Of a stretch of DNA of 64,000 bases, positions 14,796 to 64,000 are shown piece after piece (the first letter of the stretch is position 1; each line of letters opens with the position of its first letter). The stretch spans positions 725,069-789,068 of the forward strand of contig JAHPZH010000001.1 in assembly GCA_019058315.1 (NCBI GenBank), written 5' to 3'. The position numbers and the translations under genes were made by a program. This DNA comes from Candidatus Helarchaeota archaeon (lineage in GTDB: Archaea > Asgardarchaeota > Lokiarchaeia > Helarchaeales > RDOG01). The notes under the pieces were generated by a model, which saw only the letters and a list, made by a program, of their open reading frames with translations, did not search any database and had not been told where the DNA came from.

Positions 14796-16133
14796 TTATT
14801 TACCAAGAACTTTTTTCATATGAGCAATTCGTAAATTCAATAAATCTAAGGTTCCAACATCACTTCTATGATACAATTCTCCTTTTATGTATTTAATTGA
14901 TTTTTCGGCAATACGTTCAGCGATTTCAATTTTATCAGCTATACCAAGAACTCCGATGCTTCTAGATTTAGTCGTTGTTATTTTCCCATTCTCCTTATTA
15001 ACGGAGGCATAATATAGTCTTGCACCTTCTTTTTGTACTGCTTTTTCATCAACAATAACTTCTGTTGGTTTAGCATCAACTGGATAACCTTTGGGTGCTA
15101 GATATTTACAGACTGTAGCTTTATTTTCAAATTTTATCTTTAATGTATTTAATTTTCCATCAATAATCCTTTCACAAATCTCCACAAAATCATTCTTTAG
15201 TATCGGTAGCACATTCATAGCTTCTGGATCTCCAAATCGAACATTATATTCAACTAATTTAGGTCCATCTCGAGTTAACATAAATTGACCATATAATATT
15301 CCTTTATATTCTTGACCAGTTTCTTTTTTAACACAATCTACTGTTTTTTCCATTATTTGAATTGATTCTTTAATGGTTTTATCATCCACAAATGGTAATT
15401 TATGATCGGAGCAAGAATATGAACCCATACCTCCAGTATTGGGACCTTCATCACCATTTAGTAGTCTTTTATGATCTTGAACAAGCGGAGAACCTACTAA
15501 ATGTGAGCCAGTGCCATCAATAAAAGCTTGAAGTGTAAATTCTTCACCTATCAATTTTTCTTCCATTATTACTCTACTGCCACTTTTTATCAATTCTTGA
15601 CAATAATCAAGAACTTCTTTATCATTCATTAAATGGTCTCCTGTAACCTTAACTCCCTTTCCACCAGTTAGACCATCAGGTTTAACAGCAACTTCATTAT
15701 TTTGATTTAGAAATTTCTTTATCTCTTCCATATCTGAAGAAATAATATGCTCAGGATTACCCGGAATTTTATATTTTGTCATTAAATCTCTACAAAAAGC
15801 TTTACTAATTTCTAATTTTGCTGGTTCTTTTTTAGGACCGACAGAAGGAACTCCCAATTTTACCAATTCATCCGCAATACCATCTCCTAGTGGTGATTCC
15901 GGACCTATAACTGCAAAATTTAGATTTAAACCTTGCACAAATTTTTGTAATTTTTCAAAATCATTTAATTTACCCAGTAGTATTTTAGCACTAAGGGCAT
16001 CAATGCCAGGATTTTTTGAACTCATAAAACTAAATAACTCTATATCACTTTTTTTCAAGGATTCAGCTATAACATGTTCTCTAGCTCCATGTCCTACAAG
16101 AAGAATTCGAGTTTTATCACCCATTTTTGTCAC
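14796..16133 (-). CDS. purD: Phosphoribosylamine-glycine ligase
   Basis: GxGAREH, GPESPL, GKGV, QDHKR...GPNTGGMG, EYNVRFGDPE. Confidence 0.97.
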   Translation of the reverse strand: MTKMGDKTRILLVGHGAREHVIAESLKKSDIELFSFMSSKNPGIDALSAKILLGKLNDFEKLQKFVQGLNLNFAVIGPESPLGDGIADELVKLGVPSVGPKKEPAKLEISKAFCRDLMTKYKIPGNPEHIISSDMEEIKKFLNQNNEVAVKPDGLTGGKGVKVTGDHLMNDKEVLDYCQELIKSGSRVIMEEKLIGEEFTLQAFIDGTGSHLVGSPLVQDHKRLLNGDEGPNTGGMGSYSCSDHKLPFVDDKTIKESIQIMEKTVDCVKKETGQEYKGILYGQFMLTRDGPKLVEYNVRFGDPEAMNVLPILKNDFVEICERIIDGKLNTLKIKFENKATVCKYLAPKGYPVDAKPTEVIVDEKAVQKEGARLYYASVNKENGKITTTKSRSIGVLGIADKIEIAERIAEKSIKYIKGELYHRSDVGTLDLLNLRIAHMKKVLGK

Positions 16134-16356
16134 CTTTTTTTAAAAAAGTTCATTTAAAAGTTTAAATTAATTTAAATAATCCAAAATATTAATTTTTGTT
16201 TCGTAACTCATTTATTTAATCAAAAATTTCTTTCAATTAATGAATTATAAATAAGTAAAATAATCAATTAGATAAAATCCCTAAAATTTGCATTGAATAT
16301 TTTGAAATTTTAAAATATTTTTAAAAAATATCAAGTAAATTGAATAAATAATGTAA

Positions 16357-60396: not shown

Positions 60397-61239
60397 TTGA
60401 TTAAAATGATTCATAATGAAGATTATTTTAAAGGTAAGAATGGTTTAAAACTATACTATCAAACATGGAGACCTGATGAGAATCCAAGAGCGATTATCCA
60501 AATCGTACATGGAATAGTAGAGCATTCTGGAAGATATTTTAATGTAGTTAATGAATTAGTTCCTAAAGGATACATTATTTATGCATCGGACCAACGGGGC
60601 CATGGAAAATCTGAAGGAATAAAAGCATTTGTGAAAAATTTTGAATATTTTGTTGATGATCAGAAAACATTTTTTGAATTAATAAAAGAAAAAGAACCTG
60701 ATTTACCCATTTTTCTTCTCGGACATTCTATGGGTGCATTAGTGGCAATATTATTTGCCACTAAGTATCAAGAAGGATTACAAGGCTTAATATTATCCGG
60801 AGCTGGTACGAAAGCTGGAGGTGGTGCGGGCAATATTTTTGCAAGAGGCTTAGTAAAACTAATGGCAAAAATTAGGTCAAAAAGTAAAATTGATCCTCGC
60901 ACTACTGATTTAATTTCCCATGATCCAGAAGTAGTTAAAGCTTATATTGAGGACCCTTTAGTTCATAAAAAATCTACATTTAAATTAATTGGGGAACTTT
61001 TAAAATCCTATAATAAAACAACTAATCTTTTAGGTAGAATTAAAGTTCCTACTTTGGTACAATGTGGATCGGATGATAAATTAGTACTTGGCGCAGAAGA
61101 TCTTGATAAATTAATGAAAATGGAAGATAAAACCATAAAAATATATAAAGGATTATATCACGAAGTTTACAACGAGCTAGAAGAAGATAGAAAAACCGTA
61201 TTAAATGATCTTACTGAATGGCTGGATTCTCATTTATAA
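60397..61239 (+). CDS. Alpha/beta hydrolase (lysophospholipase / monoacylglycerol lipase-like)
   Basis: HGIVEHSGRY, DQRGHG, GHSMG, YHEVYNE. Confidence 0.93.
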   Translation: MIKMIHNEDYFKGKNGLKLYYQTWRPDENPRAIIQIVHGIVEHSGRYFNVVNELVPKGYIIYASDQRGHGKSEGIKAFVKNFEYFVDDQKTFFELIKEKEPDLPIFLLGHSMGALVAILFATKYQEGLQGLILSGAGTKAGGGAGNIFARGLVKLMAKIRSKSKIDPRTTDLISHDPEVVKAYIEDPLVHKKSTFKLIGELLKSYNKTTNLLGRIKVPTLVQCGSDDKLVLGAEDLDKLMKMEDKTIKIYKGLYHEVYNELEEDRKTVLNDLTEWLDSHL

Positions 61240-61437
61240 TTTTTTCTAAACCACCTTTAAACATATTAATTTTTCCAAACTTTAAAAAATATAACCTAGA
61301 AATATCCTAGGAATATACTAGTCTTTACCTATAAGGTCATCTTTAAAAATAAATTTGACTTTAAGTATGACAATAAAGAATAAAAGATATGAATAATTCA
61401 TTTAAACATTATCTTAAAGAATTCTGTGAGGTATAAA

Positions 61438-61797
61438 ATGAAGATAAATTTCACAAATTCTGCAAATAAATTCATTAATGAAACATTAGAGAAAAACAAA
61501 GAATCCTTAGACGATGTAGCACTAGCAATTTATACAAGAAGATCTATTGGATGAGGTGGAGTGAAGATATCAGTAAATATAGGTCTAATAAGAGCTCCAA
61601 TGGAAGAGATCAAAGACGAGTTCCAGGTGATTGATCAATATCGAAATGGAAATAATATAGAATTGCCCATTTTAATTGATCAAAAATCCAAAGATCTATT
61701 ATCTTATCATGATAAAATTATGGTCGAAGCTATTGGCTGGGGCTACTTTAAAAAATTGGCAATTCGTAATACTCCCGTTAGCTATGGATCTTGTTAA
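61438..61797 (+). CDS. HesB-like selenoprotein (119 aa, putative Sec at codon 39, TGA 61552-61554)
   Basis: SD-like GTGAGGT at 61426-61432, ATG 61438; MKINFTNSANKFINETL...LAIYTRRSIG-U-GGVKI continues in frame into the listed 61561 ORF; terminal Cys; downstream SECIS-like hairpin. Confidence 0.85.
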
Positions 61798-61806
61798 AAA
61801 ATTTTT

Positions 61807-61857
61807 AATCTGATGAATCTCTCTTATAAATTTTAGAAGAGAGAGGAAGAACAGTTT
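61807..61857 (+). promoter_or_regulatory. Putative eukaryote-like SECIS element in the 3' UTR
   Basis: ATGAA (61813-61817), stem TCTCTCTT, loop ATAAATTTTAG containing AAA, stem AAGAGAGA, GGAA (61845-61848); lower helix aa.ctg/cag.tt. Confidence 0.8.
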
Positions 61858-61911
61858 GCGACTGTAAAAAAAATCAAAATCTCAATTTAAGAGAGTAATA
61901 GTCATTTTAAA

Positions 61912-62460
61912 TTAATTAATTATATTAAAACCTTTTTCAATAGCCTTTATATTTAGGTCTTTATACTTTTCTGAAACGGTATCAGAAATAGATCTTATAA
62001 TTGCATCCTTTGAGACTATATTTGTAACTTTAATTAAAGCTCCAAGCATAATCATATTTGCTACTTTTTCATTTTCTAATTCTTTCGCAATTTTACTTGC
62101 TGGAATTTTAAAAACATTTTTTCTATCATCATCAAATTGGATGAGATCAGAATTTATAAAGATAAAACCATCTTTTTTAGTATTTGGATAATAAAAATCA
62201 AATGCTTCTTGTGAGATTGCCACTAATATATCCGCTTTATCTATAACTGGATATGAAATCATATCGGATTTAGAAATGATTACATCGCTTCTAACTTTAG
62301 TGCCTCTTTGTTCAGCTCCATAGGATTGAGTCTGAATTGCATTTTTTTTATCATAGATGGCAGCTTTCCCTAGTATCACGCTGACTAATATTACACCCAT
62401 GCCACCTAAACCACAAAACCGTATACTTGTTTCACTTTCTTCGTTTTTTCCAGAATGCAT
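61912..62460 (-). CDS. 2-oxoacid:ferredoxin oxidoreductase gamma subunit
   Basis: GLGGMGV, QSYGAEQRG, ANMIMLGA. Confidence 0.92.
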   Translation of the reverse strand: MHSGKNEESETSIRFCGLGGMGVILVSVILGKAAIYDKKNAIQTQSYGAEQRGTKVRSDVIISKSDMISYPVIDKADILVAISQEAFDFYYPNTKKDGFIFINSDLIQFDDDRKNVFKIPASKIAKELENEKVANMIMLGALIKVTNIVSKDAIIRSISDTVSEKYKDLNIKAIEKGFNIIN

Positions 62461-63460: not shown

Positions 63461-64000
63461 ATGAGAATAAAAAATAGAATCAGATTAATTGCACAAATTT
63501 TCCTTATTTTGACATTATTAATTGTTATTAACACTTCTAAACTTGATACTGCTGCTATTCCCTTGTCTTCAGTCAACGAAAAGGGTTTTACCTTAAATAC
63601 TGCTGCAAGCTGGTCCAATGCGACCGTTATTTCCGACCTTTACGGGTGGAACGATGGTAATAGTTATTCCCCAAGCATCGCCGTGGACGACAGTGGCATC
63701 GTACATGTGGTCTGGTACGATGCAACGGATGGTGAGTGGGGAACTGATGAAGAAATTATGTACGCAAACCTCACCGCTTCTGGTTGGTCCAACGCGACCG
63801 TTATTTCCGATAATACAGGATGGAATGATGGCAATAGTAAATACCCTAGCATTGCAGTCGAAAGTAACGGAAACATTCACGTAGTTTGGGAAGATGGGAC
63901 GTTCGGTGAGTGGGGAACTGATGAAGAAATTATGTACGTAAATTACACCGCTTCTGGTTGGTCCAACGCGACCGTTATTTCCGATAATACAGGATGGAAT
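63461..64000 (+). CDS. Partial secreted beta-propeller-like repeat protein running off the right edge (absent from the ORF track)
   Basis: ATG 63461, signal peptide MRIKNRIRLIAQIFLILTLLIVI, 58-aa repeats WSNATVISD..GWNDGNS..PSIAV...G.(V/I)HVVW.D...GEWGTDEEIMY; no stop before 64000. Confidence 0.9.
   Translation, partial: MRIKNRIRLIAQIFLILTLLIVINTSKLDTAAIPLSSVNEKGFTLNTAASWSNATVISDLYGWNDGNSYSPSIAVDDSGIVHVVWYDATDGEWGTDEEIMYANLTASGWSNATVISDNTGWNDGNSKYPSIAVESNGNIHVVWEDGTFGEWGTDEEIMYVNYTASGWSNATVISDNTGWN
63731..64000 (+). repeat. Direct repeat with a 174-bp period inside the repeat-protein gene
   Basis: 63731-63826 vs 63905-64000 differ at 4 of 96 nt. Confidence 0.93.

Follow-up and report, generated by a model that had tools for sequence, protein, structure and literature searches.

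Introduction

Small selenoproteins related to the A-type carrier IscA are known from Methanococcales and anaerobic bacteria, where they form the HesB-like selenoprotein family TIGR01911; in these proteins a single selenocysteine (Sec) replaces the first conserved cysteine of the A-type carriers. A HesB-like selenoprotein is about 100 aa long, and the function of the Methanococcus protein is unknown (PMC11097638). The family is characterized by the motif U-x-G-P (PMC13188914, Table 1).

In Asgard archaea, a different set of selenoproteins has been described. Five families were listed for Lokiarchaeia (Mariotti et al. 2016, PMC4989117), and seven were reported across more than 400 Asgard genomes by Huang et al. 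2024. The published Asgard selenoproteins are SelD, FrhA/VhuU, HdrA, FrhD/VhuD, Prx-like, AhpF-N-like, and DsbA-like (PMC4989117; PMC11227280). A 2024 study of Atabeyarchaeia and Freyarchaeia found only HdrA, Prx-like, SPS, and VhuU, and a 2026 review names three Asgard-exclusive families and does not flag the curated family NF041239 as archaeal (PMC13188914). SECIS elements with the kink-turn layout of eukaryotic SECIS have been reported in Lokiarchaeota too (PMC4989117; PMC11227280). Neither HesB nor IscA is mentioned in the main text or in 87 supplementary files of Huang et al. 2024, and no report of an IscA-fold Sec family in Asgard archaea was found in the searchable literature.

This study analysed a stretch of 64,000 nucleotides (here referred to as the window) on contig C3 of the 5.8-Mb assembly (30.5% GC) of a Candidatus Helarchaeota archaeon. 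In all likelihood, the window contains a single functional gene for a predicted 119-residue selenoprotein with an IscA/HesB fold, in which UGA codon 39 is read as Sec with the help of a SECIS element, and which belongs to a multi-copy Asgard family. Asgard archaea serve as a reference point for the origin of the eukaryotic Sec system, and this locus and its relatives add a family to the Asgard selenoproteome.

Results

A single reading frame with one in-frame TGA

The gene and its landmarks are as follows (window positions):

61428..61432, + strand: Shine-Dalgarno-like GAGGT, 5 nt ahead of the ATG at 61438 (sequence read directly)
61438..61797, + strand: predicted selenoprotein coding sequence, IscA/HesB-like fold (translation, homologues over both halves, AlphaFold2, Foldseek)
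61552..61554, + strand: in-frame TGA taken as the Sec39 codon (in alignments, opposite the first, invariant Cys of A-type carriers; kept in strain variants)
61792..61794, + strand: codon of the C-terminal Cys119, a candidate resolving cysteine (members of the U-[GS]-G subgroup repeatedly end in a Cys or have one close to the end)

One frame runs from the ATG to the TAA at 61795-61797 (119 codons plus TAA), and its only TGA is codon 39, which follows 38 codons and lies in the context S-I-G-U-G-G-V. The original prediction had claimed that a Shine-Dalgarno-preceded ATG opens a frame that crosses the TGA into a listed 78-aa ORF and ends in G-S-C, and the sequence reads as claimed. Ordinary ORF calling breaks the gene into ORFs of 42 aa and 78 aa; the Sec codon resembles a stop, and the gene is therefore missed by gene callers. 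The neighbouring genes encode an alpha/beta hydrolase and subunits of a 2-oxoacid:ferredoxin oxidoreductase, and thioredoxin is not among them. Further downstream, an ORF at 63461-64000 (+ strand) runs off the end of the window; its start is like that of a signal peptide, it contains tandem repeats about 55 aa long (unit A-S-G-W-S-N-A-T-V-I-S-D ... G-E-W-G-T-D-E-E-I-M-Y), and it resembles a repeat-rich surface protein.

Homologues retain the TGA or carry a cysteine

When 161 genomes belonging to the class were searched in six frames, six homologues of about 30% identity were recovered that span both sides of the TGA; each has exactly one TGA inside the conserved region, and these TGAs share one alignment column. 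A9, G100, W101, and L107 are invariant in alignment A1, and so is the TGA column. At shorter distances, independent sediment-metagenome contigs with 95-99% identity keep the TGA and the unchanged 3' element and contain no frameshifts, and 9 of the 13 coding differences among these strain variants fall at third codon positions, a bias present on both sides of the TGA. The frame is not a chance occurrence, since the six homologues share the TGA column with conservation on each flank and the strain variants keep the codon; the locus very probably represents a genuine gene for a small predicted selenoprotein with an IscA/HesB fold. A pseudogene with a nonsense mutation, or a TGA created by a sequencing or assembly error, has nothing in its favour beyond the presence of the stop codon itself, and it is scarcely credible given that the TGA is kept in dozens of genomes as well as in the independent contigs, with intact frames and third-position bias before and after it; the comparative data effectively refute it.

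Among 400 Asgard genomes, the A1 profile matched 53, and a single genome may contain as many as five copies; of the 79 matches listed, an in-frame TGA was present in 67 and absent from 12. Translation of 30 loci placed U at the same motif position in 28 and Cys in two, the latter being stop-free and having Cys in Q-A-C-A-G-S. The family is multi-copy, with 4 copies in the closed genome G012 and 3 in the closed genome G015, and is spread over Lokiarchaeia and some other Asgard classes. An HMM search of 1.84 billion representative proteins additionally recovered full-length relatives with Cys at the Sec site (often as C-C-G), full-length relatives with W at this site, and many C-terminal fragments. 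The W-containing relatives (P0003-P0046) are public metagenome gene calls on short contigs and could be used for finding hidden selenoproteins; their W is presumably an artefact of automatic calling under code 4, in which TGA is taken as Trp. The close relatives at NCBI are deposited as truncated hypothetical proteins of 63-74 aa from MAGs labelled Helarchaeota, Hodarchaeota, or Promethearchaeota, and the family is therefore systematically mis-annotated. The proposal that UGA is recoded as Sec to yield a 119-aa product thus finds support in homologues that are conserved on each flank rather than on one only, and that carry either TGA or, where stop-free, Cys at codon 39, as well as in the Sec machinery described below.

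Several loci deserve separate mention. The G-U-C-G-subgroup orthologues L027, L029, and L030 seem to start at TTG instead of ATG, at the same alignment position. Locus L066 (G004 C139:55881-56204) has an in-frame TAA 15 codons past the Sec codon and has probably decayed. One family of genomes (G052 C334:33160-33892; loci L068-L077) has a Cys-form and a TGA-containing copy in tandem beside a P-type ATPase, and the two copies constitute a natural Sec/Cys paralogue pair.

Predicted fold and a second thiol

AlphaFold2, run on alignment A1, gave a model with pLDDT 87.8 and pTM 0.81, with a lower value for the C-terminal tail (pLDDT 69). Residue 39 lies at the tip of a beta-hairpin, where one long strand turns into the next. 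When this model was compared with the PDB by Foldseek, the top 11 matches were all of the IscA/SufA/HesB type or DsrR (probability 0.96-1.00), including IscA 1r94/1s98/1x0g, SufA 2d2a, and DsrR 2k4z, with TM values of 0.5-0.63 to 1r94, 2d2a, and 1x0g. A sequence-profile search of PDB chains yielded nothing at E up to 10, and fold comparison alone worked. Alignment of A1 to A3, which comprises canonical Asgard IscA proteins, by hhalign (probability 86%, E 4.7e-6) brought U39 into register with the invariant Cys in G-G-C-[AS]-G. The window protein is thus predicted, from these models, to adopt the A-type carrier (IscA/HesB) fold.

Two subgroups can be distinguished at the putative active site. 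The window protein and its nearest relatives combine U-[GS]-G with a Cys at or near the C-terminus (A1; L067, L075, L078), whereas the other subgroup has G-U-C-G and lacks the C-terminal Cys. Because an adjacent Cys occurs without a tail Cys in one subgroup and a tail Cys without an adjacent Cys in the other, the sequences suggest that a second thiol is always needed, supplied either by the residue next to Sec or by the flexible tail. In IscA the tail holds the C-G-C ligands, at the place where the window protein has Cys119. A pairing of Sec39 with the terminal Cys, as initially proposed for this protein, fits the recurrence of the C-terminal Cys in its closest subgroup.

A eukaryote-like SECIS element follows the stop codon

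A hairpin with the following parts was found downstream of the gene (window positions):

61803..61857, + strand: 3'-UTR SECIS of the eukaryote-like (Lokiarchaeial) type (strict descriptor and model R1)
61809-61811 with 61848-61850, + strand: lower helix, 3 bp
61813-61816, + strand: AUGA, then one nucleotide
61818-61825 with 61837-61844, + strand: upper helix, 8 bp
61826-61836, + strand: apical loop, 11 nt, contains AAA
61846-61847, + strand: GA, one nucleotide after the upper helix

The element is located 15 nt past the stop codon and about 260 nt past the UGA. Its lower helix leaves a 3-nt bulge ahead of the tandem G.A/A.G pairs, which is the kink-turn layout of eukaryotic SECIS. A strict descriptor, i.e., AUGA-N-8bp-(AAA loop)-8bp-N-GA, was applied to the whole genome on both strands (11.6 Mb) and matched at only seven sites. 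Besides the window site, these comprise the SECIS of VhuD (a TGA-containing gene), two sites 12-13 nt past other TGA-containing IscA-like ORFs, and three with no clear upstream ORF. The last three are:

C3:41521-41555, - strand: strict match without a convincing upstream TGA-containing ORF of a known family; follows a 45-codon frame with one TGA
C10:42123-42157, - strand: strict match, likewise without such an ORF
C3:478149-478182, + strand: strict match, likewise without such an ORF

These orphan matches may mark other hidden small selenoproteins or may be due to chance.

The same layout occurs shortly after the stop codon in 21 of the 28 TGA-containing homologue loci, with very different helix sequences, and the two Cys-form loci gave weak, imperfect matches only, to a relaxed descriptor. 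All seven helix pairs show changes on both sides in the alignment of the SECIS elements (A2), where pairing amounts to 99%, a value that is partly by construction as the elements were picked with a pairing descriptor. A covariance model (R1) built from 20 elements of other genomes, with the window sequence excluded, gave its highest score in the whole genome to the VhuD SECIS (35.9 bits), followed by the window site (33.6 bits) and then by the two paralogue sites in third and fourth place; for genome matches of R1 below 30 bits, no convincing TGA-containing ORF lay upstream. Within the window, the E value of the site was 5.5e-6, and the next match scored 19 bits. That match (16107-16163, - strand) was attributed to chance; the ORF 193 nt ahead of it is amidophosphoribosyltransferase-like and contains no TGA.

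Folding energy alone is not significant for the 3'-UTR (z -1.89; 9 of 200 shuffles fold as well). The curated models of Rfam should include SECIS families, and a scan of 61000-62400 at permissive thresholds returned only chance-level snoRNA-like matches and no SECIS family. For Lokiarchaeota, standard SECIS models were likewise reported to give no significant matches (Mariotti et al. 2016, PMC4989117).

The 3'-UTR SECIS is the strongest local evidence for the Sec reading. It also bears on the extremely improbable explanation that the locus consists of two unrelated short ORFs (42 aa and 78 aa) followed by a terminator hairpin or a chance structure, which is how standard ORF calling and the NCBI annotation treat the gene and its relatives. 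Against it, AUGA, AAA, and GA are conserved in the hairpin while the helix sequences differ between genomes, homologues keep both halves in a fixed register, and the high-confidence fold prediction extends without a break across the TGA.

Sec machinery and TGA usage in the genome

Presence of the Sec machinery had been named as a check on the predicted recoding, and all parts looked for, namely, tRNA-Sec, SepSecS, EFSec, a PSTK-like gene, and SelD, were found in the genome. The tRNA-Sec scored 63.5 bits against a cut-off of 47 bits and was also called by ARAGORN as tRNA-SeC with anticodon TCA; it adjoins the genes for SepSecS (400 bits) and the EFSec/SelB homologue (287 bits). The PSTK-like gene scored 170 bits, which is under the equivalog cut-off of 290.5, a threshold trained on Methanococcales. 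SelD itself carries one in-frame TGA, and the other known selenoprotein families with in-frame TGA in this genome are represented by three FlpD/VhuD genes, a Prx-like gene, and VhuU. The Sec machinery is complete and the organism is equipped to make selenoproteins. At C5:124363-128115, EFSec, SepSecS, and tRNA-Sec are clustered on one strand and followed by a weakly matching SelD/AIR-synthase-like gene (46 bits).

TGA terminates 483 of the 3020 frames of at least 250 codons (16%); it is not globally reassigned and still serves as an ordinary stop codon. This share of TGA-ended frames is one of several observations that make it very improbable that UGA is read through or reassigned to Trp, Cys, or Gly, giving a full-length product without selenium. 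The W in gene calls of relatives on public short contigs would agree with that explanation, but these calls are automatic code-4 predictions and not observations. It is further opposed by the dedicated SECIS after the gene and its homologues, for which the Cys forms show weak relaxed-descriptor matches only, by the Cys of stop-free homologues, i.e., the signature Sec/Cys pair, and by the complete Sec machinery.

Paralogues in the same genome

Three further family members were located in the genome:

G000 C5:240985-241398 (L092:586-996), + strand: Sec paralogue, 137 aa, with A-I-U-G-T-G-G and terminal G-G-G-C; hhalign to A1 88%
C5:241411-241445, + strand: SECIS of the C5 paralogue, 12 nt past its stop codon
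G000 C2:186051-186374 (L093:555-875), - strand: Sec paralogue, 107 aa, motif F-S-U-C; hhalign to A1 89%
C2:186003-186037, - strand: SECIS of the C2 paralogue, 13 nt past its stop codon
C5:1280140-1280499: Cys-form relative

Sequence comparison confirms the C2 and C5 loci as two further putative IscA-fold Sec paralogues, each with a predicted SECIS of its own.

Scores against curated families

The cut-offs of the curated models considered were 66.35 bits for TIGR01911, 26.3 bits for PF01521, and 40 bits for NF041239. The window protein had no match to TIGR01911 at E up to 10, and none to NF041239. Against PF01521 (Pfam Fe-S_biosyn) it scored 17.6 bits (E 0.0047), which is sub-threshold, and 5 of the 7 family members tested match this model weakly. 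When the genome was searched in six frames, neither PF01521 nor TIGR01911 had a significant member (best E 0.32 for TIGR01911, whose M. jannaschii control passes). The homologues matched NF041239 at 12-37.5 bits, and those with G-U-C-G reached 22-37.5 bits over nearly their full length, all below 40. As judged by these scores, the window protein does not count as a scoring member of any curated family, being below the threshold for TIGR01911, PF01521, and NF041239.

The original prediction had called the protein HesB-like, which holds for its predicted fold and for the profile-profile alignment of Sec39 to the first Cys and does not extend to the TIGR01911 score or to the U-x-G-P motif. Strict orthology to the known HesB-like selenoproteins would share the fold class and a Sec at the first IscA cysteine position, and the C2 paralogue does show a faint TIGR01911 match (E 0.03-0.5). 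It is nevertheless unlikely, given the missing TIGR01911 matches of both the window protein and, with the passing control, the genome, a motif that reads U-G-G-V and not U-x-G-P (PMC13188914), and the fact that NF041239 is the curated model nearest to the homologues. The faint match of the C2 paralogue is N-terminal.

Discussion

A predicted selenol centre and its partner

In the mechanism proposed for the window gene, the UGA at codon 39 would be decoded as Sec by Sec machinery of the archaeal/eukaryote type, directed by the kink-turn-type SECIS hairpin past the TAA stop. Sec39 would form the reactive centre, at the position of the invariant first cysteine of the A-type carriers. Together with the flexible Cys119, it may form a reversible selenenylsulfide or jointly ligate iron, sulfur, selenium, or a cluster, and in sister subgroups the adjacent Cys (G-U-C-G) would serve as the partner in place of Cys119. 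Thioredoxin would be the likely reductant. The protein may accordingly be pictured as a selenol/thiol centre that either cycles through a selenenylsulfide with thioredoxin or ligates Fe, S, or Se.

Thioredoxin (PF00085, E 1e-23) is the immediate neighbour of family members in seven genomes from three genera and two families:

L052, L054, L057, L059, L062, L063, L072: loci adjoined by a thioredoxin gene (PF00085, W-C-G-P-C), which lies either upstream in divergent orientation or directly downstream

At an eighth locus (L070 of G159, a fourth genus), W-C-G-P-C was read by eye directly downstream.

A possible replacement of canonical A-type carriers

A broader reading, offered tentatively and as rather doubtful in its full extent, is that an Asgard-wide, multi-copy IscA-fold Sec family replaces the A-type carriers in Sec-using lineages (e.g., Lokiarchaeia), where its members would use a selenol, linked to thioredoxin, to carry iron, sulfur, selenium, or clusters. 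Of 201 sampled Asgard genomes, 9 had canonical PF01521 members, and these 9 belong to three taxonomic families; in the samples searched, the Sec family was found in none of these three families, and no sampled Lokiarchaeia genome contained a canonical PF01521 member. Since related genomes do not count as independent observations, this distribution does no more than hint at a functional replacement.

If this reading is true, the family would be the eighth Asgard selenoprotein family and one of the more widespread. In lineages in which no canonical IscA was found, the family also suggests that some step of iron-sulfur or thiol metabolism depends on selenium. The family is widespread, often multi-copy, and was missed by homology-driven surveys and by NCBI annotation; for annotation, a simple SECIS descriptor combined with a read-through search recovers such hidden genes in Asgard genomes. 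For studies of SECIS evolution and mechanism, the loci also add dozens of natural elements of the eukaryote-like type.

Comparison with known systems

The canonical IscA/SufA/HesB proteins (PF01521) have the fold predicted for the window protein, and the N-terminal strand-helix and the G-x-[C/U]-x-G hairpin can be aligned between them, with Cys present in a flexible C-terminal tail in both. The window protein differs in having Sec for the first Cys and a single terminal Cys (G-S-C) for C-G-C, and the conserved G-W motif of the Sec family is not seen in canonical PF01521 members.

The HesB-like selenoproteins of TIGR01911 are likewise small and IscA-related with one Sec at the first cysteine position. 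They have U-x-G-P where the window protein has U-G-G-V, to which the latter adds a C-terminal Cys tail. The recoding signals differ as well: the window gene is followed by an AUGA/GA SECIS of the eukaryote-like type, whereas TIGR01911 genes have the Methanococcales GAA_A type or a bacterial in-frame SECIS.

Among the curated models, the homologues of the window protein are matched best by the CC/Se motif family NF041239 (Moor_selen_rel), which was described from Moorella thermoacetica and metagenomes. This family has the adjacent Cys/Sec pair in common with the G-U-C-G sister subgroup, unlike the window protein, which has U-G-G without a vicinal Cys. The G-U-C-G centre of this subgroup mirrors the G-C-U-G redox centre of animal thioredoxin reductase.

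Lastly, the window protein family is not among the seven published families of the Asgard selenoproteome, with which it has in common the recoding system and the type I SECIS architecture of AUGA, an A-rich apical loop, and GA (PMC4989117; PMC11227280).
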